From Thermoproteota archaeon (GTDB lineage Archaea; Korarchaeota; Korarchaeia; Korarchaeales; Korarchaeaceae): a DNA stretch of 18,010 bases. Positions within the stretch are counted from its first letter, which is position 1; each line of letters opens with the position of its first letter. Shown piece by piece: positions 1-18,010 of this stretch. The notes under the pieces are model-generated. The model was not told the origin of the DNA. It worked only from the letters and a program-made list of their open reading frames with translations, and made no database searches. Position numbers and translations under genes: made by a program. The stretch covers positions 1 to 18,010 of the forward strand of contig JAOZFH010000057.1 in assembly GCA_027491415.1 (NCBI GenBank), written 5' to 3'.

Positions 1-73
1 GGAGCTCAACGAGGTCGTCCGGAATGGCCCAAGCTCCACCGTGAATGACGATCACCGGCCTCAGCGCGACCAC
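1..73 (-). CDS. iaaA: Isoaspartyl peptidase/L-asparaginase (Ntn-hydrolase, asparaginase_2 family), 5' part only; runs off the left edge
   Basis: Absent from the ORF track. My translation of the minus strand from GTG at 73 gives (M)VALRPVIVIHGGAWAIPDDLVEL, the family's typical N-terminal IxxHGGA motif. An in-frame TGA at 91-89 bounds the start. Confidence 0.8.
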   Translation of the reverse strand, partial: MVALRPVIVIHGGAWAIPDDLVEL

Positions 74-97
74 CCAGAGGAGTCGCGGTCATATCAG

Positions 98-110
98 TTA
101 AACACTTTTG
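98..110 (-). promoter_or_regulatory. Putative BRE/TATA promoter of the asparaginase gene
   Basis: The minus strand reads CAAAAGTG-TTTAA, an AT-rich island in GC-rich DNA, with the TATA 25 nt upstream of GTG at 73. Confidence 0.5.
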
Positions 111-119
111 AAGATCTGG

Positions 120-560
120 CTTGCGGGCCCGGGGTGGGGAAGCTCGTCTCAGTGGCTACGGTTTCTCGTCAGATCTTCCCTCGAACATTCGCCTGGACAT
201 GGTGCCTGGTGGAATTCCCACCGCCACCTAACCGGCGCGCTGGGGTCTGGGCCGGTCTTCACTTCGGGTGAGCCGCCCTGGGGAAGGGATCTGGAGGCGA
301 GCTTGGAAGGGAGACGCCGACACGGGGTTCTACACTCCGTGAAGGTGCCGGGGGGTGAGTCTGCGCGGCCGGCGACACGGCCCATCCAGGAGCGGGGAGG
401 GGGAGACCCGCCGGCGGCGGGCGAGGGCTGCGAGCAGAGAGACGTCTTGGTCGCCGAGCTCAGCCTGGACGAAGGGTTCGCTTGAGTGGGCCAACGCTTG
501 GGACTGGGTTGCGGCGAGAGGGCAGAGAGACCCACGGAGAACTCGGCGACGAGTGTGAGA
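120..560 (+). pseudogene. Possible heavily decayed carbon-nitrogen hydrolase (nitrilase-family) remnant; alternatively a non-coding element
   Basis: No convincing intact ORF. Fragments in shifting + frames (GVGKL, QIFP, IPTAT, QRDVLVAELSLDE, EWANAWDW) occur in the order expected for the C-terminal half of CN hydrolases. Weak, by-eye similarity only. Confidence 0.25.
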
Positions 561-602
561 ACGAGTCGAAAAGCTGGGCGGCGCCTGAGACCGCTGCGCC
601 CA

Positions 603-609
603 TTTTTTA
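603..609 (+). promoter_or_regulatory. Putative TATA box (TTTTTTA) for the metallophosphoesterase gene; the T-tract could also terminate an upstream transcript
   Basis: T6A lies 25 nt upstream of GTG at 634 and follows an imperfect hairpin at 575-602. Confidence 0.45.
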
Positions 610-633
610 CGTCCCGACCTGGAGGTTGGGCTC

Positions 634-3117: not shown

Positions 3118-4207
3118 CGCAGGCCCTCCCCCGCCTGAAGAGGTGGGCCCTCCACAGGCCAAGGGCCACCACCAGCCCGCCCGCGGGAAAGAGAACCACG
3201 GACACGGGGTCGGCTCGAGCCTCCCTAAATATTATCGGCGTGAGGGCGTGCGCAATCTCCGCAGTCGAGGCGAGCAGAGCCGCCTTCACGGGAACCAAGC
3301 CCAGAAGCGCCACCAGAAGCGCCAGCGGTGGCCAGGCGTACAAGGCAGCCAGTCCCGCGGCGACCCCGGCGGCGTTCACGGCGCTGAGGGGCGCGTCCCT
3401 GGAGGAGATCCTGGCCACGGCGTCCAGCGCCTCGCGGGCGGAGGTCGCCCACGTGGACCTGACCGCCCCCGCCCCCCTGAGCATGGTGACCCTGAAGCCG
3501 CGAGAGGCGAGCAGCCTCGCGAGATCCCTGTCCTCGACCGGGGAACTCCTCACCGCCCCGTGGCCGCCGACCCCCACGTACGCGCGGCGCCAAACGGCGA
3601 AGAAACCCCCGAACCCCCAAGACCTCTCGTCGGGCGACCCGACCCTCCACTGGGGAAAGAAGATTCTGATGGTCGCCGCCAGGGCGAGTTCTGCGGCGCA
3701 GGCCAAGCCCCGGCACGAGTAGGTCGGGGAGACCGTCGCGGCGTCGGCCCTCTCCAGCGCGTACACGATCCCAGAGACGGCCCACTCCGCGACCTCCACG
3801 TCGGCGTCGACGAACAGGAGCACCTCCCCCGAACTCTCTGAAAAGCCGATCCAGCAGGCCCACGTCTTCCCGAGCCACCCCTCGGGCGGTTCAGGGGCCC
3901 GGACGAGCCTGAACCTCGGATCCCCGGCCGCCGCCTCGAGGGCCTCTTCGGGAGTCCCGTCCGTGGAGGAGTCGTCGACGACGATGACCTCCAAATCGCC
4001 GTAGTCCTGCGAGAGCAGCGATCTCACACACCTGCCCACGCGCCCCCTCTCGTTCCTGGCCGGGACTATGACGGAGACCCTCGGACCTCCCCCAACTCTG
4101 GCGGGGTTGAGTCTCGGGATCCTCGACATGCCCAAGAGGGCCCGAACCGCCAGCCAGGCGTGGATCGCCCCTAGGGCGATCGTCAGGAGGGTCGCCGCGG
4201 CGCCCAA
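3047..4207 (-). CDS. Membrane-bound family 2 glycosyltransferase (HpnB/CrtQ/CruC-like)
   Basis: Motifs VSVIVPARNE, VDDSSTDGT, WLGKTWAC, FVDAD and VEDRDLA; N- and C-terminal TM helices; terminal WRGR. Start placed at TTG 4207, with a TATA-like element at 4232-4237. Confidence 0.88.
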   Translation of the reverse strand: MGAAATLLTIALGAIHAWLAVRALLGMSRIPRLNPARVGGGPRVSVIVPARNERGRVGRCVRSLLSQDYGDLEVIVVDDSSTDGTPEEALEAAAGDPRFRLVRAPEPPEGWLGKTWACWIGFSESSGEVLLFVDADVEVAEWAVSGIVYALERADAATVSPTYSCRGLACAAELALAATIRIFFPQWRVGSPDERSWGFGGFFAVWRRAYVGVGGHGAVRSSPVEDRDLARLLASRGFRVTMLRGAGAVRSTWATSAREALDAVARISSRDAPLSAVNAAGVAAGLAALYAWPPLALLVALLGLVPVKAALLASTAEIAHALTPIIFREARADPVSVVLFPAGGLVVALGLWRAHLFRRGRACVRWRGRKICPSSSGLSLPQPLPP

Positions 4208-4272
4208 GTCCCCGCACCAGCCGCGGCATTGTTTAATGCCGCAAGCGGGAGGGCGGGCGAGAGGAGTTAACT

Positions 4273-5262
4273 TTGCTGAGCGGCGTCTCATCCGCCATCG
4301 CAGCCCTGAGATTGCGCCTCAGAAGGCCCGAGATCCTGATAATAGCTCACGGGGACGTCGACGGCGTGATAAGCGCGGTGATAGCCGCTCGGGCGCTGGG
4401 GGATGATCCCACCTTCCTGTTCTCCGGCCCGAGGAGCGTCCACCGGACCCTGGCCACGATTCCCCCCGGCTCCGGCCGGATAGTCCTGGTGGACATCGGA
4501 GTGAACGCGAACAGGCTCGACGAGCTCGAGCGTCAGCTCGGGAGGTTGAGGGAGTCCGGGTGGAGCGTAACGTGGATAGACCACCATCAGTGGCCCGACG
4601 GGGCCGTAGAGAGGCTCTCCAAGTACGCCGACAGGGTGGTGGTGAGGCCGGCCCCCAGCGCCGCCCGCGTCGTCCTGGACGAGCTTGGAGGGGACGGCTA
4701 CGCGAGAGAACTTGTTAAGATTGCAGACGATGCGGACACGGCCACCTATCGGACGGAACTCGCCAGGATGTACAGGCCGCTCACTAGGATCAGGTCTAGG
4801 AGGGAGTACCTGCTCAGGAGCCTCCTAGAGGGCCGCCTGAACGACCCTAAGATCGCGGAGTGGGGAACGGAGAGCATGGACACCGAGAAGAGAGCCGTGG
4901 AGGAGGCTCTGGCGAGGGCTGAGGTTCGGGTCACCAAGTCAGGCAGGAAGTACGCCCTGATAGACCTGCGGCCCCGCGGCGGGCCCGGCTCGGCAGTCGC
5001 CAAGAAGATGGCCGCCGAGCACGGGGTGTCATTTTCCCTGGTGATCTACACCTGCGGGAGGTTCTCTCTGTACGCCGGGGCCGAGAAGGACATCAATCTG
5101 AGGCCGATATGCGAGGAGGCGGACGGCGGCGGGCATCCCTACGCGTGCGGGGGAAGGATAAGGCTCCCCCTCCACAAGAGGGTACTCTGCCGTCTCCTCG
5201 GGAGGAGGTACACGCCTCGGGAGATCGGAGAACTCGTGAGAAAGGTGGAAGAGCGGTTCTGA
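4273..5262 (+). CDS. DHH/DHHA1 family phosphoesterase (NrnA/RecJ-like)
   Basis: Motifs HGDVDG, VDIG, IDHH, DDAD and the DHHA1 signature GGGHPYACGG. GAGGAG precedes the TTG start. Confidence 0.9.
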   Translation: MLSGVSSAIAALRLRLRRPEILIIAHGDVDGVISAVIAARALGDDPTFLFSGPRSVHRTLATIPPGSGRIVLVDIGVNANRLDELERQLGRLRESGWSVTWIDHHQWPDGAVERLSKYADRVVVRPAPSAARVVLDELGGDGYARELVKIADDADTATYRTELARMYRPLTRIRSRREYLLRSLLEGRLNDPKIAEWGTESMDTEKRAVEEALARAEVRVTKSGRKYALIDLRPRGGPGSAVAKKMAAEHGVSFSLVIYTCGRFSLYAGAEKDINLRPICEEADGGGHPYACGGRIRLPLHKRVLCRLLGRRYTPREIGELVRKVEERF

Positions 5263-5306
5263 TCGGGGGCCAAGGGTGCCGAGGAATCCGCGACGGGCTG
5301 CTCAGA

Positions 5307-6197
5307 TCAGCCCCCGACCAGGCTTCGGATCAGTCGCCTCGCCCTGTTGACCACTTCACTAGGCTGGATGGGGCCACCCTCCGTTGCGTAGGTTGAGACG
5401 TATCTCGCCGGGACGACCTCAAAGACCGGGCACGCCAGCTCGACCCCCTCGGGCGGCTCGGGGAGCCCCTCGCACGAGGAGGTCTCGGGCCTCCGGAATC
5501 GACCCCAGACATCCACCTTCAGGAGGTCGGTGGTCACGACCAGCGGGACTTCGAAAGCGTCGCACGCCAGGGCCATAGAGAGCGTCCCGACTTTGTTCAC
5601 GAGGGATCCGTCGCCTAGCACCGCGTCGGCGCCGACCAGGCCAGCGTCGGCCTCTCCAACGTGGGAGGGTATCGCGGAGTCGGGAATCACCCTCACCCTC
5701 ACACTCACCGGGAGGGAGGCGAGCCTCCTGGCCGTCTGCAACCCCTCCCCGAGTGGCAGGCTCTGGGATACCACGATCTCCCTAAGTGACCCGGAGAGGG
5801 CCGCCCTTCTTAGGGTCTCGAAGGCCGTCGAGCTCCAGCTGAGCGTTACGACCCTCCGCACGCCCTTCATCTGCTCCGCAGCCACCTCGGCCGCCCGGAA
5901 CCTGGAGGAACGGACGTGCTCCCTCAGCGCCTCCAGCCTGCCCGCGACGCCTGCGGGCCACCCTAGGAGAGACTTCATCGCAAAGGCAAGGTTGAGGAGA
6001 GGAACCATCTCAGGGTGAGAGTCGCTGAGCGCCCTCACCTCCCTGAGGACGGCCTCCCTCGGCAGGCCCAGCCGCGCCGAATCGATGAGGAGGTCCAGCG
6101 CCCTCTGGAAGATCTCGGAGGCGCCGGAGCGCCTGTCCCTGGCGAGCTCCCTGAGGCCCTCAAGCGGGTCTCGCCCAGGACGGCTGACTTGCCCCAC
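5307..6197 (-). CDS. eIF-2B alpha/beta/delta family protein (archaeal aIF2B-like)
   Basis: Motifs DRRSGASEI, HPEMVPL, TLSWSST, SxPLGEG, VGADAV, NKVGT and FEVVP. Start placed at GTG 6197, about 25 nt downstream of a TTATAT box at 6221-6226. Confidence 0.85.
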   Translation of the reverse strand: MGQVSRPGRDPLEGLRELARDRRSGASEIFQRALDLLIDSARLGLPREAVLREVRALSDSHPEMVPLLNLAFAMKSLLGWPAGVAGRLEALREHVRSSRFRAAEVAAEQMKGVRRVVTLSWSSTAFETLRRAALSGSLREIVVSQSLPLGEGLQTARRLASLPVSVRVRVIPDSAIPSHVGEADAGLVGADAVLGDGSLVNKVGTLSMALACDAFEVPLVVTTDLLKVDVWGRFRRPETSSCEGLPEPPEGVELACPVFEVVPARYVSTYATEGGPIQPSEVVNRARRLIRSLVGG

Positions 6198-6276
6198 GCG
6201 AATCCCCTTGGAGAGAGAAGATATAACGAATATCCGCAATGAGCGAGCCGATTCCGCCCGTTCACACCGTTTCAAC

Positions 6277-6298
6277 GGGGGCCCTTTTTATGGCCCCC
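6277..6298. promoter_or_regulatory. Inverted repeat GGGGGCC/GGCCCCC enclosing a TATA-like CTTTTTAT in the divergent eIF2B-like/glmS spacer
   Basis: Perfect 7-bp arms at 6277-6283 and 6292-6298 with an 8-nt AT-rich loop. Confidence 0.45.
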
Positions 6299-6375
6299 CG
6301 GAAGGTCTACACTGCCGATACCATGCGAGCGAACGCTTCTTCAGGGGGGCCGCCGGCCCGGGGGGTGCGGTCACG

Positions 6376-8211
<1,836 letters not shown>

Positions 8212-8260
8212 GGTCAATCTTTTTGACGGCCCCCTTGGCCGGGCGTCGGGGGGTGAGCCC

Positions 8261-9619
8261 TTGCCCGAGATAGAGGAGATAGGGCCGCGCAGGGTTGAGA
8301 GGGTGGGCGCCCACAGCCACGTCAAGGGGCTGGGGCTCGACGAGAATATGAAGGCCCTGCCCGTGGGCGACGGACTCGTCGGCCAGCTGAGGGCCAGGGA
8401 GGCCGCAGGTCTGGTGGTGCAGATGGCCAAGGAGGGGAAGCTCAGCGGGAAGGCCGTCCTGCTCGCGGGGCCGCCGGGAACTGGGAAGACCGCCATAGCC
8501 CTCGGAATAGCCAGAGAACTCGGTGAGGACGTTCCGTTCATCCAGATGAGCGGCTCCGAGATCTACAGCGCCGAGAGGAAGAAGACCGAGGTGCTGATGG
8601 AGGCCATGCGCAAGGCGATAGGCGTCAGGCTCAAGGACGTCAGGAGGGTCTACGAGGGCGAGGTTACCAGCCTAGACATCAAGACGGGCTCGAGCCCGTT
8701 CAATCCGTTCGTCAAGGTACCGCAGAGCGCCGTGATATCCCTCAAGACCGACGAGGAGGAGAAGACCCTCAAGGTCGGCCCCAACGTCGCCCAGCAGCTG
8801 GTGGAGATGGGCGTCGAGGAGGGCGATGTGATCATGATCGACGCCGAGTCAGGCAGGGTCTCCAAGATCGGCAGGGCCGAGGGAAGGGGAGGCTACGACG
8901 TGGACGCGGTGAGGACCGTTTCCAGGCCCACCGGGCCCGTGCTGAAGGAGAAGGAGTTCGTCTACACCATGACGCTGGACGACCTAGACAGGCTCATGGC
9001 CAGGAGGAGGGGCGGGGGCTCCATCTTCAGCCTGCTGTTCGGAGCGGCCGAGGAGAAGGAGATAGACCCAGAGGTCAGGGCCGCAGTGGACCAGCAGGTG
9101 ATGGACTGGGTCAACGAGGGCAGGGGCGAGATAGTCCCCGGCGTGCTGTTCATCGACGACGCCCACCTCATGGACATCGAGGCCCTCAGCTTCCTGAGCA
9201 GGGCCATGGAGGGCGAACTCGTCCCCATAATCGTGATGGCCACCAACAGGGGCGTTACCAAGATCAGGGGGACCGACCTCACCGCCCCCTTCGGCATGCC
9301 CCTCGACCTGCTCGACAGGCTGGTCGTCATAACCACGAGCAAGTACTCGCCAGAGGAGATCGAGGAGATCCTCAGGATAAGGGCAAGGGAAGAGAAGGTG
9401 AAGGTGGAGGATGGCGCCCTCAAGCTGCTGAGGGAGCTCGGGGCCGAGAAGTCGCTGAGGTACGCGGTCCAGATACTCAGCATAGCCGGGGTCAGGGCCA
9501 GGTCCCTGGGCAGGGAGTCGGTCACCGAGGAAGACGTTAGAGAGGTGTCTCAGAGGTTCAGCGACCTCAGGGAGGCCGTGGAGCACCTCAAGAAGTACGA
9601 GAAGGAGATGCTCGAGTGA
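8261..9619 (+). CDS. TIP49/RuvB-like AAA+ ATPase (RuvBL1/2 homologue)
   Basis: AHSHVKGLGL, Walker A GPPGTGKT, SEIYS, Walker B LFIDDAH, ATNRG, DLLDRL and SLRYA. A GGGGTGA Shine-Dalgarno precedes the TTG start. Confidence 0.96.
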   Translation: MPEIEEIGPRRVERVGAHSHVKGLGLDENMKALPVGDGLVGQLRAREAAGLVVQMAKEGKLSGKAVLLAGPPGTGKTAIALGIARELGEDVPFIQMSGSEIYSAERKKTEVLMEAMRKAIGVRLKDVRRVYEGEVTSLDIKTGSSPFNPFVKVPQSAVISLKTDEEEKTLKVGPNVAQQLVEMGVEEGDVIMIDAESGRVSKIGRAEGRGGYDVDAVRTVSRPTGPVLKEKEFVYTMTLDDLDRLMARRRGGGSIFSLLFGAAEEKEIDPEVRAAVDQQVMDWVNEGRGEIVPGVLFIDDAHLMDIEALSFLSRAMEGELVPIIVMATNRGVTKIRGTDLTAPFGMPLDLLDRLVVITTSKYSPEEIEEILRIRAREEKVKVEDGALKLLRELGAEKSLRYAVQILSIAGVRARSLGRESVTEEDVREVSQRFSDLREAVEHLKKYEKEMLE

Positions 9620-9620
9620 C

Positions 9621-9653
9621 GGATGGGCGCTCCGCGCCCGCCATCCACTTTTT
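9621..9653 (+). terminator. GC hairpin plus T-tract after TIP49, in a convergent spacer
   Basis: GGATGG/CCATCC and GGGCGC/GCGCCC complementary arms, followed by T5 at 9649-9653. Confidence 0.55.
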
Positions 9654-9681
9654 CTGGCGAGCTTTTTGAGCAGGCCAGTCC

Positions 9682-10626
9682 CTATCCGGGATTTCCCCTG
9701 CCGAATGCGAGCCTCACTTTGAGCTTCACGGGGTAGCGCGAGTAGACCGGGTGAGCGGGTCTCTTCACGCGCTTGACCTCAAAGTAGGGGACGGTTCTCA
9801 GGAGTGGGTGATCTCGTCCGCACGGGTGAGAGTACATTCCACCCTCCCCGAGGAACTCGCCGTGATCGGATGTTATCGCAACCTTCAGGCCGTCGAGGGA
9901 TGAGAGCATCAGCGCGACGGATTCCATCACTACCAGTAGGTTCTCGCGATAGGCCTCCCTCAGGCCGGACACCCCGTGGGCCCTCCTAGTTGCGTCAAGC
10001 GGTGACAGAGGCGGCAGGCCCAGCGCATCGCGGAACCTCAGCGCCATGTCCATGCTCAGGCCGAGCCTCCCGAGTAGGCCCACGAGCTTTCCGGCGAGCC
10101 TGGCCAACAGCCTGTTTCCAGCTGAGTCGGCGGTCCCGGTGAGGACTATTCCCTTCACGAGTTGAGGCCTCTGGAAACCCGTGACGAAGTACCTAGGGGA
10201 GAGGTAGGGGGCGTGCGGCTGAATGTAGTGGGCTATCAGGCGCCTGCCCTTCCCTCGCTCAAGCTCGGCCAAGACAACGCGATTGACTGAGTCTGGCGTG
10301 ACCGTGCCGAGGTGAGGATCCCACGCACTCTTCCACAGATCGAGGACCCTGTCGAAGTGCTCCCTAGCGTTACAGCCAGCGACCTCTATCCCCAAGGAGT
10401 TGATGTAGGGGTTGGCCGAGACGTATGTGACGTCTGGGTAGCGGCCCGTGAAGGTCCGCCTGAACCACTCTGGGGTGCAGGATCCCTTGGACCTGACCCG
10501 ACGTAGGTCTCCCTCGAAGTACCTGCTGAACGCATCCTTGAAGGCATCGAACCTGCACGCGTCGAGGACTATCAGGAGATCCCAATCCTCGGCCATGGGG
10601 TCAAAGCCGTCCTCCGTTCCGGCCAC
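9682..10626 (-). CDS. Alkaline phosphatase (AlkP) superfamily, sulfatase-like hydrolase/transferase
   Basis: Motifs LIVLDACRFD, SKGSCTPEW, HYIQPHAPY, AYRENL, ITSDHGE and terminal H..VP. A TATA-like TTAATTTA lies at 10647-10654. Confidence 0.85.
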   Translation of the reverse strand: MAGTEDGFDPMAEDWDLLIVLDACRFDAFKDAFSRYFEGDLRRVRSKGSCTPEWFRRTFTGRYPDVTYVSANPYINSLGIEVAGCNAREHFDRVLDLWKSAWDPHLGTVTPDSVNRVVLAELERGKGRRLIAHYIQPHAPYLSPRYFVTGFQRPQLVKGIVLTGTADSAGNRLLARLAGKLVGLLGRLGLSMDMALRFRDALGLPPLSPLDATRRAHGVSGLREAYRENLLVVMESVALMLSSLDGLKVAITSDHGEFLGEGGMYSHPCGRDHPLLRTVPYFEVKRVKRPAHPVYSRYPVKLKVRLAFGRGNPG

Positions 10627-10698
10627 CTCGGGGGCCCTCTCGCGTGGTAAATTAAGGTGCTGGTGGGCTGGCCGACGAGCAGCCCACCAGCAGAGAGG

Positions 10699-11115
10699 TC
10701 AGTGGTCCGGCCTCTTCACCTCCAGCTCGGTCTCGAACTCGACGCAGGCCTCCTTGAAGAGGACCCCGACGGGGCAGACCTTCAGCGTGTCCTCCCAGAT
10801 CTTCCTGACCCTCTTCTCGGGCTCGCTGGACGTGACGATTCCCTTTATCTTACCGGAGGTGATGGTCCTCTCTCCCTGGGGCTTCTCCGCATCGACGATG
10901 ACCTCCATGTCCTCGAAGCTCAGCCCCTTACCCTTCGCCACCATCGCGAAGATCGTCGTGATGCACCCGGCTAAGGCCATCACCGCAAGCTCGAGGGCCG
11001 TAGGGGCAGTATCCGTTCCTCCCATGTCCTTAGGGAGATCAGTCACGACGCTGTGGCCCCTACCGTCGTCAATGACGGATCTAAATCCCTCAACCAGCTT
11101 GGACCGGGCCCTCAT
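10699..11115 (-). CDS. OsmC/Ohr family protein
   Basis: DLPKDMGGTDTAPTALEL and two conserved cysteines (LAGC...CPV). 138 aa from ATG 11115, with a GGTG Shine-Dalgarno. Confidence 0.9.
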   Translation of the reverse strand: MRARSKLVEGFRSVIDDGRGHSVVTDLPKDMGGTDTAPTALELAVMALAGCITTIFAMVAKGKGLSFEDMEVIVDAEKPQGERTITSGKIKGIVTSSEPEKRVRKIWEDTLKVCPVGVLFKEACVEFETELEVKRPDH

Positions 11116-11140
11116 TGGTAGGCACCGGAAAACACCATGG

Positions 11141-11156
11141 TTATGGATACTCATAA
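11141..11156. promoter_or_regulatory. Palindromic site TTATG-N6-CATAA, a candidate operator in the osmC/mptA divergent spacer
   Basis: The sequence TTATGGATACTCATAA overlaps a minus-strand TATA-like TTTATG. Confidence 0.35.
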
Positions 11157-11212
11157 AGTTGCTCAATCGGCAGGTTCATTACCACCCCCCCTCGGGGGGT
11201 CGCGAAAGGGAG

Positions 11213-12079
11213 ATGGCCCTCGACAGGCTTGGAGAGGAGGCCAGAGACATCCACGCAGACCCACCGACCCGAAGGATTCGCCTGAAGAGAGTAGGTGGGC
11301 TGGGGCTCAGGGTTCCGGTTCGAATTGGGCGGGAGAGCTACCCGGCGGAGGTCGACCTCTTGGTGGACCTCCCTGAGTGGCGCAGGGGGGTCGACCTCTC
11401 TAGGCAGAACAGGGCCCTCTACGAGGCTCTGTCCTCTGCTGAGGGCCCTCTGGAGCTGGCTAGGGCGACCGCCGAAGCCCTCCTAGAGAAGCTCGACTAC
11501 GCGTCGCGCGCCGAGGTGAGGGTCAGGCTGGAGGGCCTGAGGAGGGCCCCCCCGAACGACTCCTATGAGCCCTACGCGCTAGAAGCCTTCGCGGGCTTGG
11601 ACAGGGAGGGGGAGACTCTGGAGAGAATCGCCGTGGAGGTCACCGCGACCACAGCGTGCCCTTGCACTCAGGAACTCCTCCGAACCCTCTTCAGGCTCCG
11701 CGGCCTCGAATCCGTGGGACTCGCCACGCACACCCAGAGGGCGAGGTTCAGGCTTGAGATCGCAGCACACAGGATCGAGGGGGTTGGGGTGGAAGAGTTG
11801 ATCGAGGTCGTGGAGGGAGGCGCCAGCTCGCCCGTTAGAGCCGTGCTCAGGCGTCCGCAGGAGGCGGGACTCGTCTTATCAATGCTGGAGAACGCCCTGC
11901 TGGCCGAGGATGCCGTCAGAGAGATCGCGTTCAGGGCCGCGTCTCTAGACTTGCCCGACGAGGCGACGATCCGGGTGACCGTCAGGACTCAGGAGAGCGT
12001 CCACGCCCACGACATATTCGCGGAGCTTGAGGAGCGGGTGGGTCGAATCAGGGAGATCGCCCGCCTCGGCGGCGAGTGA
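11213..12079 (+). CDS. mptA: GTP cyclohydrolase MptA / FolE2 (GCYH-IB/IV family)
   Basis: Motifs LKRVG, VDLP..RRGVDLSR, TTACPC, THTQR, EDAVR and ESVHAHD. The true start is ATG 11213; the upstream part of the 543-aa ORF is antisense to osmC. Confidence 0.9.
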   Translation: MALDRLGEEARDIHADPPTRRIRLKRVGGLGLRVPVRIGRESYPAEVDLLVDLPEWRRGVDLSRQNRALYEALSSAEGPLELARATAEALLEKLDYASRAEVRVRLEGLRRAPPNDSYEPYALEAFAGLDREGETLERIAVEVTATTACPCTQELLRTLFRLRGLESVGLATHTQRARFRLEIAAHRIEGVGVEELIEVVEGGASSPVRAVLRRPQEAGLVLSMLENALLAEDAVREIAFRAASLDLPDEATIRVTVRTQESVHAHDIFAELEERVGRIREIARLGGE

Positions 12080-12875
12080 GTTCGGTTCCGGAGCACGTGC
12101 TGAACATCAGAGAGCCCAAGATCGCGCACTCCTCGAGATCCATGATCAGGTCCCCCTTGCCGAATCCCTCTGAGAGCTGAACGGCGGCGCCCCTCAGGAC
12201 GACGAAGGGGACCATCTCGCCTCCCTCGCCCATGGCCAAGTGGGCGGCCGACGCCAGTGAGTCAGCAACGTCGAGCTCGGTGATCCTCACCTCCCTCCCG
12301 TAGATGTCGGTCAGCCCCCTGTAATCTCTCAGGGGCTCCAGCCCGGCTACCCCTATCGCCAGGCCCACGGTGCCCCTCCTTAGCGGGAGGAGGCCGCTGT
12401 CCACTATCAGCACCCCCACCCTAACACCCGCGCGGCGCAGGATAGCCTCCCTGATCTCCCACGCCGCCCCGTCCGGGTCCCGGGGCCAGGCGGTGAGCGT
12501 CCCCGGCGGGGAGTTCTTGGCGTCGACTCCGGCGTTCGGAACCGCGGAGCCGGAGACCAGCGTGAGTGCGGCGTGTCTGACGCACCCTAGGATCTCGTCG
12601 GCCTCATTCACGACCGCCTGGGCGAACCGAGGGCCCAGTCCGGTGGACCTCGAGATGGAGAGGGCCAGCTCCCCTGGGCTCAGATCCTCCAGCCCGATGA
12701 TCCTGCCCTTTGAGGTGGAGACCGCCTTCGAAGCCACGGCCACCACGTCTCCGCTGCGAAGCGAGACTCCCTGCTCCTCGCAGGCGCTGAGGAGCGCCTC
12801 GACGAGGTCGTCCCCGGGAGCGATGGGCCGCCGAACGGGGATCGGAATTACCTCGATCCTCCTGAGCCCTGTCAC
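12048..12875 (-). CDS. cofE: CofE-family gamma-glutamyl ligase (F420-0:glutamate ligase homologue; possibly folate/pteroate glutamylating)
   Basis: Motifs IAPGDDL, GDVVAVASKAVS, NAGVDAKN, DPDGAA, IVDS...LRRG, DYRG..DIYGR and ADSLASAA...MGEG. Its GTG overlaps the mptE stop (GTGA). Confidence 0.88.
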   Translation of the reverse strand: MTGLRRIEVIPIPVRRPIAPGDDLVEALLSACEEQGVSLRSGDVVAVASKAVSTSKGRIIGLEDLSPGELALSISRSTGLGPRFAQAVVNEADEILGCVRHAALTLVSGSAVPNAGVDAKNSPPGTLTAWPRDPDGAAWEIREAILRRAGVRVGVLIVDSGLLPLRRGTVGLAIGVAGLEPLRDYRGLTDIYGREVRITELDVADSLASAAHLAMGEGGEMVPFVVLRGAAVQLSEGFGKGDLIMDLEECAILGSLMFSTCSGTELTRRRGGRSP

Positions 12876-13642
12876 CTCGGCAGCACCTCCGAGGGGTCCT
12901 CTACGACCTCTGCGCCTGAGCTCTCAAGGCCCCTAGCCGTGGGCAGGACGTAGACCCGTGCGCCGAGGTCGCGGGCCAGCAGCCCTATCATCCAAGCGGC
13001 CACGCCGAGCTTCGCCCTCTTGAACCCGAGATCCTTGCCCCTTAGGACGTCCAGGGGAGAAGAGGAGGTAAGGTCGACGCCCGCAAGGAGTATGCTATTC
13101 GCACCGGCCGCATGCGCCAGGAAGGCCGCCCTGTCCCCGTCGGTGAACCCCCCAAAGTTCCTCACCGGGCCGACAGGCTCAACCTGGGTTGTGGGGAGCA
13201 GCGTGGGGAGGCGAGGCACCCACTTCTGGAGCGCCGGGACGTTGTCCCCGTGGGCGTGTATCACCGGGACGGCGCCCATCTCGGCCAGCCTCAGGGTCAC
13301 GGCGTTCCTACCGTCCAGGTCAGACACGATCGCGTCGGGTACCCTCCCGAGCAGGGAGTAGGTCGTCATGGCGGCCCCGTCCGCCGCCAGCACCGGGAAA
13401 TCCACGCGCCCGACCGACCACGCGATCGTCGAGAGATCCCGCTCGAGGTTGGGACCGTTCCAGGCCACGAGGACTGGCCCTCCCGCCAAGAGCTCCTCCA
13501 GCTGGTGCGGCTCGACGGCCTTCCCACTCGCCAGGTCTGCCATGAGGCCGGCGGCCTTCCGATCCTCCTCCTCGCTGAGGCCCAGCATCTCGGCTATCCT
13601 CCTGTAGGTGGGCATCCACCAGCTCAGGTCTACGTCGAGCAC
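12872..13642 (-). CDS. mptE: 6-hydroxymethyl-7,8-dihydropterin pyrophosphokinase, archaeal MptE type
   Basis: W...Y.RI...LG...EED, NGPNL, AADGA, PDAIVSDLDG, IHAHGDN, TTQ and NFGGFTDGDRA. Confidence 0.92.
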   Translation of the reverse strand: MLDVDLSWWMPTYRRIAEMLGLSEEEDRKAAGLMADLASGKAVEPHQLEELLAGGPVLVAWNGPNLERDLSTIAWSVGRVDFPVLAADGAAMTTYSLLGRVPDAIVSDLDGRNAVTLRLAEMGAVPVIHAHGDNVPALQKWVPRLPTLLPTTQVEPVGPVRNFGGFTDGDRAAFLAHAAGANSILLAGVDLTSSSPLDVLRGKDLGFKRAKLGVAAWMIGLLARDLGARVYVLPTARGLESSGAEVVEDPSEVLPR

Positions 13643-13665
13643 CGCTCCGTGGCGCGCGGCCTCGC

Positions 13666-13672
13666 TTAAATT
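13666..13672. promoter_or_regulatory. Single TATA-like element (TTAAATT) between the divergent mptE and folP genes
   Basis: It is the only AT-rich tract in the 52-nt spacer and lies about 23-24 nt from both starts (GTG 13642 on minus, TTG 13695 on plus). Confidence 0.55.
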
Positions 13673-13694
13673 CCCTGCCGAGGCCCGTGAGGCG

Positions 13695-14930
13695 TTGCTC
13701 GCCGAGGCGGATCTGGGCGGAGTGCTGGTGGGCGACGGCCACCCCGTCCGTGTGGTCGGGGCCCTGAACGTCAGCCCCGAGTCGTTCTACAGGGGATCAG
13801 TGGCCGACGATACGGACAGGCTCATAGAGATGGCCGGGAGGATGGTGGACGAGGGCGCCGACATCATAGACGTCGGGGGGATGTCCACCGCCCCCTACCT
13901 GGACGCGAGGGTCTCGCCCGAGGAAGAGAGGGGGCGGGTCGTGGAGGCGATCTCCGCCCTCGCGGGCTCCATAGAGGTCCCGATCTCGGTGGACACCCAG
14001 AGGGCGCTCGTCGCCAGGGCCGCGCTGGAGGCCGGCGCCAGGATAGTGAACGACGTGTCCGGACTCACCGGAGATCCCGGAATGGCTCCTCTCATCGCCG
14101 AGTACGGGGCCTCCGCGATCGTGTGTGCCCACGGCAGGGTGAGCGATCCGAGCGACCCTATATGGGAGGTCAAGAGGCTCCTCAGGAACAGCCTCAGGCT
14201 CGCGGAGCTCGCGAACGTGCCCCTGGGCAAGGTTGTCGTCGACCCGGCTATAGGATTCTTCCGGGACACCGGCATACCCTGGTACCAGTGGGACGCGAGG
14301 GTGATCTCGGAGCTTGGCAGGCTCGCCTCGCTGGGCAGGCCGGTCCTGGTGGGACCCTCTAGGAAGTCGTTCATCGGGGCCATAGCGGGGGTGGAGCGAC
14401 CGGAGGACAGGCTGCCCGGCTCTCTGGCGGCTGCGGCCGTGGCCGTAGTGGAGGGGGCCCACGCCGTGAGGGTTCACGACGTCGCAGAGACCGTCCAGGC
14501 TGTCAGGGTGGCCGAGGCCCTCAGAAGGACGAGGAAGACAGCCAGGAGCGGGCGCTGCGAGGGGGTCGAGCTGAGGGGCCTCCTGGAGCGAGACCTGAGG
14601 GAGGTCATGGTGGACATGGGGGTGCACCCCGGCGGGGCCGAAATAATGGCCAGGAAGGGAGTGGGCCGGGTCCTCCTGATCCGGAACCTGCCGAACCCCG
14701 TGGCGCAGATACTGAAGCAGGAGGCGCTCTCCGCTGGCGGAGACGTCGCCACTCCGGCCGAGTCGCTGGTCGGCGGCCCCGACCTGAGGGTAGACGTGCT
14801 GGTCCTGGCCAACGACCGCCAGATCGACAGGATCGTCCAGAAGCTCTCTCTCATGGCCTCCCAGCAGTGGTCCTTCTCGTCGGAGATCGGGGGCCTGGTA
14901 AAGGTGATAGAGGAGCTGAGGGAAGGTTGA
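13695..14930 (+). CDS. folP: Dihydropteroate synthase with a C-terminal dihydropteroate-reductase-like domain
   Basis: DHPS motifs LNVSPESF, DVGGMST, ISVDT, NDVSG, DPAIGF, GPSRKSFIG and VRVHDV, followed by ~120 extra residues containing ILKQEALSAGGDVATP. Start placed at TTG 13695. Confidence 0.93.
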   Translation: MLAEADLGGVLVGDGHPVRVVGALNVSPESFYRGSVADDTDRLIEMAGRMVDEGADIIDVGGMSTAPYLDARVSPEEERGRVVEAISALAGSIEVPISVDTQRALVARAALEAGARIVNDVSGLTGDPGMAPLIAEYGASAIVCAHGRVSDPSDPIWEVKRLLRNSLRLAELANVPLGKVVVDPAIGFFRDTGIPWYQWDARVISELGRLASLGRPVLVGPSRKSFIGAIAGVERPEDRLPGSLAAAAVAVVEGAHAVRVHDVAETVQAVRVAEALRRTRKTARSGRCEGVELRGLLERDLREVMVDMGVHPGGAEIMARKGVGRVLLIRNLPNPVAQILKQEALSAGGDVATPAESLVGGPDLRVDVLVLANDRQIDRIVQKLSLMASQQWSFSSEIGGLVKVIEELREG

Positions 14931-15163
14931 CCGACATGCGCCGCCTGCTGAGGGTGGGGAGGGACGGGTCCCTCCGCCTGCCGGCCGAGCTCCTCGGGGC
15001 GGTGGGGGCACGTCCCGGGTCGCTGGTCTCGGTCGAGGTGGACGAGGTGGGTGGGGTTATCTCGCTGCGGACGCTCTCGATCCAGAGGCCTGAGATGAGG
15101 ATGGGGAGGGGGCTCACTCCAGAGGAGATAGGGGAGCTCATCGTGGCGGGGGCGAGGGCATGA
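14927..15163 (+). CDS. AbrB/MazE/SpoVT-like antitoxin (VapB)
   Basis: RVGRDGSLRLPAELLGAVGARPGSLVSVEV is a swapped-hairpin pattern. Start is TTG 14927 (overlapping the folP stop) or ATG 14936. Its stop overlaps the PIN gene start (ATGA). Confidence 0.8.
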   Translation: MTDMRRLLRVGRDGSLRLPAELLGAVGARPGSLVSVEVDEVGGVISLRTLSIQRPEMRMGRGLTPEEIGELIVAGARA

Positions 15164-15558
15164 AGTCGGCGGTCATCGACACCAACGTCTTGGTCTACGA
15201 CGCCTTCACCGATCAGCCGCTCCACGAGAGGGCCAGGAGCCTCTTGGACTCGCTGGATAGTTGGGTCATCCCGACCATCGTCTTGATCGAGCTGGCCTGG
15301 TTCGCTCGGGGGGCGGGACTCGGTGAGAGGGAGGCTAGGGGACTCGTGTTGGGCTACGCCCTCTCCGACAGGGCGGAGGTGGTGGAGGTAACCGCCGACG
15401 ATCTGGTCGACGCGCTCGCCTCCGCGCCGTCCATGATGGACCTAGAGGACGAGCTGATACTGTGCGTGGCCGAGAGGCTCCAGCTCCCCCTGGCCACCTT
15501 CGACTCTCGCCTCAGGAGGAGGGCCCACGGGAGGGGCGTCCCCCTGATCCCGGGGTGA
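15160..15558 (+). CDS. vapC: PIN-domain ribonuclease toxin (VapC)
   Basis: 132 aa with VIDTNVLV, IVLIEL, DLEDELI and LATFD, supplying the acidic PIN residues; translationally coupled to the antitoxin. Confidence 0.9.
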   Translation: MKSAVIDTNVLVYDAFTDQPLHERARSLLDSLDSWVIPTIVLIELAWFARGAGLGEREARGLVLGYALSDRAEVVEVTADDLVDALASAPSMMDLEDELILCVAERLQLPLATFDSRLRRRAHGRGVPLIPG

Positions 15559-15575
15559 GTGGGCGGGGTCGAGCC

Positions 15576-16658
15576 TTGAGCGTGCTTGAGGAGCTGGGGA
15601 TCAGGCTGATCTGGTTCGACAGCATGGGGGCCAAGAGCTCCTGCGTCGCGGTGGAGACGGCCGAGGGGCCCGTGGTCATAGACCCTGGGGCGTCCAAGAT
15701 GCAGCCGAGCTATCCCCTCCCCTCCGAGGAGAAGCTGCGGCTGAAGTCTCGGGCCCTGGGGGAGATCTACGGTTGGCTGAGGAATGCCCGGGCCGTCGTG
15801 ATAACCCACTACCACTACGACCACTACCTCGTGCCCGGGGAGGAGGGCGCTCCCCCGGACCCAGCGCCTTACCGCGGGAAGCTCATCATAGCGAAGAATC
15901 CCAACGCCTACATCAACGAGAGTCAGTGGAGGCGCGCCAGGGAGCTCTTCTCCTTGATCCTAGGGGCCTCGGGCGATCGCCTCGAGGGGCACCTGACGGG
16001 GCCGCGCCGAGAGGACTTTCCCGACCCCTTTGATAACCTGCCGCTGGCCTCGTCTGCCGAATTCGGGGACTACGCACCCAGGAGGAGGGAGCTCCTCGCC
16101 AAGGGGAGGAAGTGGTTCCAGAGGCTAGCCCAGGGCCTGTGGTCCTCGGGCCCGTGGGTCGAGGAGTTCGAGCTGAGCGACGGGACCAAGGTGGTCTGGG
16201 GGGACGGTCGGACCTTCGAGATCGGGGGCGTGAGGTTCGAGATCCTCGGGCCCTGGTTCCACGGCCTGGAGTACGACCGAACCGGCTGGGTCACCCCGGT
16301 CGTCGTCAGGGGGGGTGGGAGGGCCGCGTTCATCACCAGCGACGTCATGGGCCCGGAGATAGAGGACTACGCGGAGGCGGTGGCCTCGGCCAGGCCAGAC
16401 GCGGTGATCCTGGACGGGCCCCCGACATACCTGTTCCCCTTCATGCTCAACAGAATCAACCTCGAGAGGGCCGTCGAGAACGCAATCAGGATCGTCGAAG
16501 CTGAACCGGAGCTGGTCGTCTACGACCACCACCTCCTAAGGGAGAGGAGGTGGAGGGAGAGGGTTCACAGGGTGTTCGCGGCCGCGGAGAGGGAGGGCGT
16601 GACCCTTACAACGGCCGCGGAGGTCCACGGGAGTAGGCCGCTCATAGACACGCTGTGA
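15576..16658 (+). CDS. Metallo-beta-lactamase-fold hydrolase (UPF0282-like)
   Basis: Motifs DSMGAKS, IDPG, THYHYDH (HxHxDH), SDVMGP, DGPPTY and DHHLLR. Start is TTG 15576, or GTG 15555 overlapping the vapC stop. Confidence 0.85.
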   Translation: MSVLEELGIRLIWFDSMGAKSSCVAVETAEGPVVIDPGASKMQPSYPLPSEEKLRLKSRALGEIYGWLRNARAVVITHYHYDHYLVPGEEGAPPDPAPYRGKLIIAKNPNAYINESQWRRARELFSLILGASGDRLEGHLTGPRREDFPDPFDNLPLASSAEFGDYAPRRRELLAKGRKWFQRLAQGLWSSGPWVEEFELSDGTKVVWGDGRTFEIGGVRFEILGPWFHGLEYDRTGWVTPVVVRGGGRAAFITSDVMGPEIEDYAEAVASARPDAVILDGPPTYLFPFMLNRINLERAVENAIRIVEAEPELVVYDHHLLRERRWRERVHRVFAAAEREGVTLTTAAEVHGSRPLIDTL

Positions 16659-16662
16659 CGGC

Positions 16663-17451
16663 ATGACTTTTTCACGTCTGGTCAGCAGCGCCCCCCCGCA
16701 GTTGATCGACCCGATTGAGCTGGCGAGGAGGACGGAGGAAATCGTGGCGAGGGAGTCCGAAGGGGCCCAGCTCAGGAAGTACTACAGGTTCAGGCTGGAC
16801 AGGTGGTACGGCGGGGTGGCGACGGCCGACGCCGTGGGCTGCAACCTGAGGTGCGTGTTCTGCTGGAGCTGGAGATACGTGACCCGCCCAGACGCCCACG
16901 GGGAGTTCTACTCTCCCCAGCAGGTTGCGCGCAGGCTGGTGGGCATGGCGAGATCCAAGGGGATCCCAAGGGTCCGGGTGAGCGGAGCGGAGCCGACCAT
17001 CGGCAGGGAGCACCTCCTGGCCCTCCTAGAGCGCACCCTCGACTCGGACCTTCTCTTCATCCTGGAGACGAATGGGATCCTCATCGGGGCCGACGAGTCC
17101 TACGCCGAAGACCTCTCGAGGTTCAGGCACGTCCACGTGAGGGTGTCCCTCAAGGGCTGCACACCCGAGGAATTCTCTCGCCTCACGGGCGCGGCTCCCA
17201 GGTTCTTCGAGTATCAGCTGAGGGCACTGGAGAACCTGCTAGAGCACGGCGCGTCCTTCCACCCATCGGTGATGCTCGGATTCTCCACCGAGAAGGGCCT
17301 GCTCAACCTGGTCGACAGGCTGAGGGAGATAGACGAATCCCTGCCGAGCAGGCTGGAGCCTGAGCTCCTGATCCTCTACCCGGCTGTGGAGTCAAGAATA
17401 AAGAGGGCTGGCCTCCGGCCGACTGGATTCGTGCGCCCCGGGGAGGACTGA
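16663..17451 (+). CDS. Short radical SAM protein of unknown function
   Basis: CNLRCVFC (CxxxCxxC), SGAEP, LETNG and VRVSLKG; 262 aa, starting 4 nt after the MBL gene. Confidence 0.9.
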   Translation: MTFSRLVSSAPPQLIDPIELARRTEEIVARESEGAQLRKYYRFRLDRWYGGVATADAVGCNLRCVFCWSWRYVTRPDAHGEFYSPQQVARRLVGMARSKGIPRVRVSGAEPTIGREHLLALLERTLDSDLLFILETNGILIGADESYAEDLSRFRHVHVRVSLKGCTPEEFSRLTGAAPRFFEYQLRALENLLEHGASFHPSVMLGFSTEKGLLNLVDRLREIDESLPSRLEPELLILYPAVESRIKRAGLRPTGFVRPGED

Positions 17452-17493
17452 GTTCAGCCCAACCGGTCGATTCGTTTTTACCCTCCGCGAGGC

Positions 17494-17856
17494 ATGTCGG
17501 GCGCGATGACCCTGGTGGTGGAGGTCTCCCACAGAGCCGAGTTCGTGGAGCTCGTCCGAGGCTACGTGTCGGAGATGAGGCTGGCCCCCGTCCTGTTCTG
17601 GAGGGAGATCAGGGGGGAGTACGGCCCTGACGGGCCCGAGGCGGAGATCCTCTTCCTCGTGCCGGTCTACCCGCCGGACATAGACTGGGTTATCTGGAGG
17701 TACAGGGAGAGGGTGAGGGCCCCGCCCGGCTCGGGCGAGGCCGAACTCAGGTCCCTGGTGAACTCCGCCGTCGACTCCATGCTCAGGGACGTCGGGGCCG
17801 AGAGGGCGGTGAGGATAACCGGCATGAGCGTGGACGGGGAAGACGTCTGCCGCTGA
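17494..17856 (+). CDS. Hypothetical protein
   Basis: 120 aa with codon usage like its neighbours. TTTTTA at 17475-17480 would favour the second ATG at 17506. No family recognised. Confidence 0.7.
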   Translation: MSGAMTLVVEVSHRAEFVELVRGYVSEMRLAPVLFWREIRGEYGPDGPEAEILFLVPVYPPDIDWVIWRYRERVRAPPGSGEAELRSLVNSAVDSMLRDVGAERAVRITGMSVDGEDVCR

Positions 17857-17903
17857 CGGTTTTACCCGCGAACCCTCAATGTGCCAGGGAGGGGTCAAGG
17901 GCC

Positions 17904-18010
17904 TCAGTAGCCCCAGGAGCCCTGACCCTGCCCCCACCCCCGTCTGCCTCTCCCACGACCTCCCCTCATCCCCATGCCGCGTTCGCGACCCATCCCCATT
18001 CCTCGCCCCC
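17904..18010 (-). CDS. 3' end of a gene with a Gly/Arg/Met-rich tail (as in NifB/NifX-family or similar small proteins); enters from the right edge
   Basis: My translation of the minus strand gives ...GRGMGMGRERGMGMRGGRGRGRRGWGQGQGSWGY*, with the stop at 17906-17904. Absent from the ORF track. Confidence 0.65.
   Translation of the reverse strand, partial: GRGMGMGRERGMGMRGGRGRGRRGWGQGQGSWGY

Follow-up and report, generated by a model that had tools for sequence, protein, structure and literature searches.

A Helicobacter-type FolP domain at the C terminus of an archaeal dihydropteroate synthase, a candidate substitute for FolA

The folP gene and its two domains

An 18,010-nucleotide (nt) stretch of DNA from a Thermoproteota archaeon of the family Korarchaeaceae (GenBank assembly GCA_027491415.1, contig JAOZFH010000057.1, positions 1 to 18,010 of the forward strand), termed the window, contains on its plus strand a folP-like gene at 13695..14930, stop codon included. 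The product of this gene, likely 411 amino acids (aa) in length, consists of a dihydropteroate synthase (DHPS) barrel followed by a small C-terminal domain, referred to here as the tail. The open reading frame (ORF), the start used by relatives and a full-length structural model all contributed to the delineation of the gene. The ORF itself occupies 13608..14930 (+), equivalent to 440 aa when counted from the first GTG, and all of the peptides cited in the initial annotation of this DNA were present in it: VRVHDVAETVQAVRVAEAL, then MGVHPGGAEIMARKG, IRNLPNPVAQILKQEALSAGGDVATP and DVLVLANDRQIDRIVQKL. A word-indexed protein search with this protein yielded three close relatives, and these nearest database proteins (P0001 to P0003) had lengths of 406 to 411 aa and tails that were 96, 82 and 64% identical to that of the window protein. 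The true start of folP is likely the TTG at 13695, because these three relatives begin there and because a TTAAAT hexamer (13666..13671, +) is located 24 to 29 nt upstream. This hexamer was the sole AT-rich hexamer read from the 52-bp spacer separating the TTG from the start, at 13642, of a divergent MptE-like gene; it fits an archaeal TATA box preceding a leaderless message and, hence, may act as the promoter.

The barrel was readily assigned. PF00809 (Pterin_bind) matched residues 51 to 290 of the 440-aa frame over profile positions 2 to 244 of 244 (1.9e-59), and a nucleotide-located match, again over positions 2 to 244 of 244, placed the pterin-binding TIM barrel at 13758..14477 (+; 2.9e-60). 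The DHPS equivalog TIGR01496 of NCBIfam scored 225.1 bits (cut-off, 162.6), and 44 distinct PDB sequences, all of the DHPS type, were matched down to 4.4e-47, with none extending past residue 316. By these profile and structure matches the barrel is a full-length, above-threshold dihydropteroate synthase, FolP. The initial annotation had described a complete barrel followed by an extra C-terminal stretch, and this description was borne out. Monofunctional FolP of the E. coli type (∼280 aa) contains the same full DHPS barrel but differs in the ∼128-residue C-terminal domain, which was absent from all 44 of the matched solved DHPS sequences.

The tail was delineated by profile and model as residues 282 to 411 (14538..14927, +), residues 282 to 409 (14538-14921, ∼128 residues) forming the domain in the full-length model, and the family profile A3 matched 14571-14918 at 2.1e-38. 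The initial annotation had placed the domain at 14560-14930; while the feature was real, this start lay ∼22 nt inside the domain and one base out of frame relative to the model start at 14538. Across 51 aligned domains of all arrangements, K321, K341 and L345 (numbering of the 411-aa protein) were invariant and A337, Q342, G348, A352 and Q376 were at least 90% conserved. The core motif, K-Q-E-A-L-S-A-G-G-D (K341 to D350; 14715..14744, +), defined from the 51-domain alignment and from one of 20 C-terminal (C-type) copies, contains the invariant K341 and L345 and the near-invariant Q342 and G348. The invariant K321, present in 51 of 51 domain sequences, is the K of 'IMARKG' (14655..14657, +), and Q376 (14820..14822, +) was also invariant in the 20 C-type sequences. 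Every family-invariant and near-invariant residue of the domain was carried by the window protein.

No family model in Pfam or NCBIfam covers this domain. Pfam gave no family for the last ∼130 residues even at E values of up to 10 (the best row was a FitA-like ribbon-helix-helix antitoxin, E 0.068), no NCBIfam family matched the same residues, and a search of PDB sequences with the 51-sequence domain profile returned chance rows only (best E, 0.37). In the ESM Atlas, clusters of ∼122 aa were matched at 0.88-0.91 and were either unnamed or automatically named 'dihydropteroate synthase'; restriction of this search to named clusters lacking PF00809 gave no usable match for the tail.

Relationship to the N-terminal domain of Helicobacter FolP

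Profile A1, built from the four closest tails, was searched with HMMER against a set of 1.84 billion representative proteins. The number of proteins detected was 431 at E<=0.001, falling to 32 at E<=1e-10 and to 1 at E<=1e-30. As a four-sequence profile found 431 of 1.84 billion proteins at E<=0.001, the conservation of the tail extends far beyond chance. The best 150 of the 431 matches were scanned with Pfam and local profiles for domain order, a survey proposed in the initial annotation. The domain was located ahead of the Pterin_bind barrel in 68 and after it in 16, while the other 66 of these best 150, mostly of 77 to 175 aa, had no detectable barrel and could equally be free-standing genes or contig fragments. 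One of the domain-first clusters was named as a dihydropteroate synthase of Helicobacter zhangjianzhongii.

In order to avoid circularity, a second profile was derived exclusively from 20 archaeal C-terminal copies, and its E values were calculated for a library of 1.84 billion. This C-type-only profile matched the FolP N termini of H. canis (81.7 bits, 3e-18) and H. hepaticus (75.9 bits, 1.9e-16), with named Helicobacter FolPs spanning 76 to 90 bits (E values of 1e-16 to 1e-21; maximum, 89.8), and it also matched 66 unnamed 380-aa FolPs of the Helicobacter group, found around a Helicobacter query, at 56.6 to 60.3 bits (<=1.9e-10). The matches to Helicobacter proteins were located at residues ∼12 to 120. 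The 380-aa proteins received no name from their cluster entries and are not called H. pylori here; the sole point of agreement with H. pylori HP1232 is their length of 380 aa. Pairwise comparisons gave the same result, with BLASTP aligning the window tail to residues 6 to 96 of one 380-aa protein (32% identity over 92 residues, E 7e-11) and to H. hepaticus FolP (38% identity over 74 residues, E 2e-10). These profile and pairwise matches establish true homology between the tail and the Helicobacter-type N-terminal FolP domain, as the initial annotation had proposed.

A word-indexed search with a wider profile detected 483 longer proteins. The best 120 of these were all of 314 to 438 aa, contained PF00809 and had the domain at the N terminus; those with a name were called 'dihydropteroate synthase' and came from Desulfotomaculum-like Bacillota, Margulisbacteria and Thermoplasmatota.

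Two further observations were made on the architecture of these proteins. Some Helicobacter FolPs, namely P0114/P0176 (H. zhangjianzhongii, 615 aa), P0300 (641 aa) and P0301 (H. canis, 566 aa), are enlarged by ∼230 residues that separate the N-terminal domain (∼11 to 111) from the barrel (350 to 590), and this extra stretch had no Pfam match at E<=1e-5. In a 231-aa protein, P0118, the small domain comes directly after, and in frame with, the C-terminal half of a GCHY-1 cyclohydrolase, possibly through read-through of adjacent genes. This protein was rejected as a third architecture, being a contig-end fragment whose domain is near-identical to the N-terminal domain of the FolP P0113.

Distribution of the reversed order and phylogeny

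The domain was detected by profile search in 19 of 41 genomes (the own genome and 40 relatives) and in 21 of the 43 genomes of the phylum in the genome set searched. In all 19 holders the domain match was directly downstream of Pterin_bind on the same contig and strand, two of these loci ending at contig edges, and all 12 of the relatives' loci that were translated had barrel and domain within a single open frame. These results substantiated the reversed domain order. One relative (G030) had a TAA within the frame carrying its domain match. The three nearest public loci, found with a four-sequence alignment, came from metagenome-assembled genomes (MAGs) of Thermoproteota or Nitrososphaerota archaea, and other named C-terminal forms came from MAGs of Candidatus Geothermarchaeales and Candidatus Jordarchaeales. 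Thermoplasmata carry the N-terminal form (P0343), and both orders thus occur in archaea. In this archaeal lineage the domain is, as a rule, placed after the barrel; this order also occurs in other archaeal phyla and is not peculiar to this genome.

Trees were constructed separately for the two parts of the protein. In the barrel tree, 20 C-type and 41 N-terminal (N-type) sequences were parted by a single branch with 100% support in the Shimodaira-Hasegawa-like approximate likelihood ratio test (SH-aLRT). The domain is short and, in a free search with 22 C-type and 69 N-type sequences, its tree needed two changes of arrangement; a constrained tree uniting all of the C-type sequences had a log-likelihood 18.2 higher than that of the free search, with a P value of 0.705 in the approximately unbiased test (p-AU). 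When 59 barrel-less rows were added, all 22 C-type rows were contained in a single 30-member group supported at 86%. Both trees were unrooted. The barrel and domain trees agree on a single old split between the two arrangements, which would be due either to permutation of an already fused gene or to a free-standing gene having been fused on two occasions, either of which fits these data.

Gene neighborhood and genome content

Three genes with putative functions in pterin and folate synthesis are located upstream of folP. The divergent gene (12872..13642, −) encodes an MptE-like 6-hydroxymethyl-dihydropterin diphosphokinase (PF01973, 1.5e-16), followed by a CofE-like gamma-glutamyl ligase (12048..12875, −; PF01996, 1.3e-61; TIGR01916, 189.5 bits), a candidate for the addition of glutamate, and by a GTP cyclohydrolase of the FolE2/MptA type (GCHY-1; 11243..12079, +; PF02649, 1.7e-46), which catalyzes the first pterin step and corresponds to residues 266 to 525 of the ORF 10448..12079. 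Wherever a relative's locus included enough flank, the MptE-like gene was next to folP and divergent from it, and the cyclohydrolase and CofE-like genes adjoined folP in several relatives.

The CofE-like gene of the cluster (12048-12875) scored above the CofE cut-off of TIGR01916 and also matched TIGR04132, 'putative folate metabolism gamma-glutamate ligase', at 92 bits, below the cut-off of that model; its product may glutamylate pteroate instead of F420. Four CofE-like (PF01996) genes were found in the own genome (G000), the other copies being located at C56:36846-37583, C56:61720-62457 and C60:15254-15886.

The own genome comprises 1.78 Mb in 63 contigs and is 96.3% complete. Searches of genomes for protein families were validated by the detection of each family in the expected control genomes. 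Dihydrofolate reductase (DHFR, the FolA protein; PF00186), ThyA (PF00303), RibD_C (PF01872), FolC (TIGR01499) and CofD (PF01933) were not found in the own genome, while ThyX (PF02511) and serine hydroxymethyltransferase (SHMT) were found. RFAP synthase (TIGR00144) was also not found in this genome, and its absence favours the use by the barrel of p-aminobenzoate rather than of the arylamine of the methanopterin route.

The ThyX proteins of this lineage are ∼300 aa in length and matched the Thy1 profile in two pieces (profile positions ∼8 to 80 and ∼55 to 187), as observed for the own copy (G000 C61:13345-13710, locus L002) and those of relatives (loci L030-L051). A two-piece match suggests a lineage-specific insertion in ThyX. 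More distant relatives have an ordinary ThyX of 218 to 266 aa.

Other features of the window lie to either side of these genes. Ahead of the cyclohydrolase domain, the GCHY-1 frame includes a further 265 residues (10448-11242, +) with no family match, and this ∼800-bp stretch overlaps a 314-aa minus-strand ORF (9682-10626), also without a Pfam match. Downstream, genes for an AbrB/MazE-like antitoxin (14936-15163, +) and a PIN-domain toxin (15160-15558, +) begin 6 nt past the folP stop codon. The closest relatives (L003, L005, L010 and L015-L017) have this toxin pair at the corresponding position, and more distant ones do not. It is followed by a gene for a metallo-beta-lactamase-fold protein (15462-16658, +; 398-aa frame), which close relatives likewise have after the toxin pair, and then by a gene for a radical-SAM protein (16663-17451, +); neither of these two genes has an evident link to folate.

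Predicted fold of the tail

Models of the tail and of the whole protein were generated with AlphaFold. The tail model, from a 51-sequence alignment, had a predicted local distance difference test score (pLDDT) of 95.5 and a predicted template modelling score (pTM) of 0.81 and consisted of two short strands and two helices followed by a beta-alpha-beta-beta-alpha-alpha unit. For the whole protein, modelled from 20 C-type sequences, the pLDDT was 92.3 and the pTM 0.89.

Comparison of the tail model with 48,161 representative chains by VIA-align gave ThyX family members as the top five matches, with Z scores of 8.6, 7.7, 7.3, 6.8 and 6.3. These alignments included 96 to 109 of 130 residues at a root mean square deviation (rmsd) of 3.0 to 4.8 Å and covered residues ∼9 to 130 of the domain; one of the five was H. 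pylori ThyX with flavin adenine dinucleotide (FAD) and dUMP. Rows below the top five (Z<=6.2) spanned residues 43 to 130 only, a segment to which small binding domains of the PII-like and KH-like types were also similar (Z scores of 4 to 5). In a second VIA-align pass over the best 1000 chains from Foldseek, the top 29 were all ThyX (Z, 9.2 to 7.0), after which the score fell to 5.1. ThyX chains appeared at ranks 18 and 37 in Foldseek itself, with the highest TM-scores. Identity in the structural alignments was 7 to 15%, and about half of ThyX was covered.

The RHR tripeptide is the nucleotide-binding signature of ThyX, and none was read from the translation of the tail domain. Homology to ThyX at the sequence level was rejected for now, with an hhalign probability of 0.9% and no Thy1 or other Pfam match. 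Among solved structures ThyX (PF02511) ranked as the nearest in fold in the VIA-align comparisons and, according to PDB entry titles, binds flavin and folate together; the tail domain differs from it in being about half its size and in having no profile similarity to it. The resemblance of the predicted fold to the flavin- and folate-binding ThyX is, hence, put forward as a new lead and not as homology. A literature search found no paper linking the FolP domain to ThyX.

Discussion

The primary papers on the bifunctional FolP of Helicobacter are reportedly those of Levin et al. of 2004 and 2007. In excerpts of PMC1971073, FolA is described as absent from H. pylori and FolP as fused to 'Dhfr2', and excerpts of this source and of PMC10764224 describe the Helicobacter FolP fusion as reducing dihydropteroate by means of reduced flavins and as able to replace DHFR. 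The archaeal FolP with the domain sits in a genome in which ThyX was found and FolA was not, the same gene pattern as is reported for H. pylori in the excerpts of PMC1971073. From homology and genome context, reductase activity and flavin use would extend to the archaeal C-terminal form, and the explanation that we favor, one that we consider fairly probable, is that the tail reduces the dihydropteroate made by its own barrel with a reduced flavin and so replaces FolA. This cell probably makes reduced folate without a classic dihydrofolate reductase.

In the proposed pathway, the MptE-like kinase would supply hydroxymethyl-dihydropterin diphosphate and the TIM barrel would join it to p-aminobenzoate. 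The tail would then take the resulting 7,8-dihydropteroate from the barrel and convert it to tetrahydropteroate using a reduced flavin, which might be held against the pterin in a ThyX-like manner. A FolA-type reductase would not be needed if the tail performs this reduction. As FolC was not found, the CofE-like ligase of the cluster may be the enzyme that adds glutamate. ThyX yields tetrahydrofolate. No recycling reductase would be needed, because ThyX regenerates tetrahydrofolate rather than dihydrofolate.

A number of observations weigh against this explanation. None of the 41 relatives yielded a PF00186 match, irrespective of the presence of the domain and including those without FolP. The absence of FolA does not, therefore, single out the domain as a reductase, and it was dropped as co-occurrence evidence. 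The genome is a draft in 63 contigs, and each family recorded as absent is to be read as not found. No flavin-binding family or motif was recognized in the tail domain in the Pfam and NCBIfam scans. With regard to the fold, Foldseek detected nothing in the PDB at E<=0.001 and placed KH domains first (E 0.02), the hhalign probability noted above came from comparison of the 51-sequence domain profile with a 28-sequence ThyX alignment from relatives, and best Z scores of 7 to 8 are, according to the notes of VIA-align, common also among models that have no clear relative. Lastly, in two more distant archaea (G034 and G037) DHPS was matched strongly in frames of 300 and 287 aa that lack the domain, and DHFR was not found. 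Other archaeal routes to reduced folate must, therefore, exist.

These plain FolPs make another reductase plausible in archaea and are the starting point for an alternative in which the tail is a non-catalytic accessory of FolP, with a role in assembly, regulation or ligand sensing through the binding of pterin, p-aminobenzoate or flavin, while reduction is performed by another enzyme. Such a role would be in keeping with the lack of a recognised cofactor motif, with the common two-layer alpha/beta character of residues 43 to 130 (PII-like and KH-like at Z scores of 4 to 5) and with the occurrence of the domain in many short proteins without a barrel, the 66 of the best 150 matches. The Helicobacter homologue, however, is described as conferring dihydropteroate reductase activity in the excerpts of PMC1971073. 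Furthermore, the invariance of K321, K341, Q342 and Q376 in bacteria and archaea suits a catalytic or binding site over an interface, and the domain is tightly tied to FolP in genomes lacking FolA. We consider an accessory role unlikely, though of some weight.

Less probable still is catalysis by the tail of another step or on another substrate, whether as a flavin reductase, as a reductase of dihydrofolate or another pterin or in a ThyX-like one-carbon transfer. The family of the ThyX-like fold performs methylene transfer as well as redox reactions, and a genome without a detected FolC and with four CofE-like ligases suggests a non-canonical, folate-like end product. Fusion to DHPS in both orders, in bacteria as well as archaea, argues instead for action on the product of DHPS, and the signals expected for a ThyX-like enzyme are lacking from the sequence (0.9% in hhalign and no RHR tripeptide). 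An artefactual fusion, in which an assembly or frame error in a MAG had joined two neighboring genes, could draw on the 63-contig draft and the TAA of G030 but is effectively refuted by the same continuous frame in 12 of 12 relatives' loci, by independent database proteins of 400 to 431 aa from several sources, including contigs of 0.69 to 1.9 Mb, and by a model that is confident across the junction (pLDDT of 90 to 94 around residues 270 to 300; pTM, 0.89).

Two known bifunctional systems stand close to this protein. The Helicobacter pylori-type FolP ('DHFR2') has the same two domains, and the ILKQE-L-S-GGD-A core and the invariant lysines are common to both. It differs in the order of these domains, the barrel (13758-14477) coming first and the domain match (14571-14918) last on the same strand and in the same frame in the archaeal protein, and in its host, the archaeon having an MptE-type kinase, a FolE2/MptA-type cyclohydrolase and no FolC that could be found. 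In haloarchaea, a fusion of FolC, 'alternative DHFR 2' and FolP is listed in excerpts of PMC11665356 for organisms studied for the DHFR bypass. It has the same named module beside FolP, a comparison made by RAST role string only; in the role order given in those excerpts FolC is in front and the module is ahead of FolP, while in the archaeon studied here the module comes after FolP and FolC was not found.

The initial annotation had read placement of the module after FolP as an independent fusion or permutation, of which it knew no description. A literature search found no paper describing the C-terminal order, a search that did not reach Levin 2004/2007, de Crécy-Lagard 2012/2014 or supplementary tables; PMC8305020 and PMC3352284 make no mention of the domain. 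The suggestion of novelty held to this extent, yet the arrangement is common in archaeal MAGs and is not a one-off. The bifunctional enzyme itself was already known.

A broader proposal combines these observations. The domain for DHFR bypass would be a miniature module of the ThyX fold with a reduced flavin stacked on the pterin, as in ThyX, and the archaeal C-terminal version would be old, of single origin and part of a tetrahydrofolate route of four genes, encoding the FolE2/MptA-type cyclohydrolase, the MptE kinase, the DHPS-reductase and the CofE-like glutamate ligase, that is free of FolA, FolC and ThyA. We advance this proposal tentatively and consider it less likely than not. If it is true, ThyX and the FolP-fused reductase, both hallmarks of microbes lacking FolA, share one structural invention.

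The supply of reduced folate without FolA is poorly documented in most archaea outside the halophiles. A homologue of 'DHFR2' at the tail end of a conserved FolP offers an explanation that is concrete and can be tested, both in this lineage and in others, such as those represented by Asgard-related and Geothermarchaeales MAGs. Such proteins are annotated only as 'dihydropteroate synthase', and metabolic reconstructions consequently show a gap at the reductase step, a gap that a domain model for either orientation would close. The ThyX-like fold, if confirmed, would provide the first structural rationale for flavin-dependent reduction of a pterin by a domain of 100 residues.

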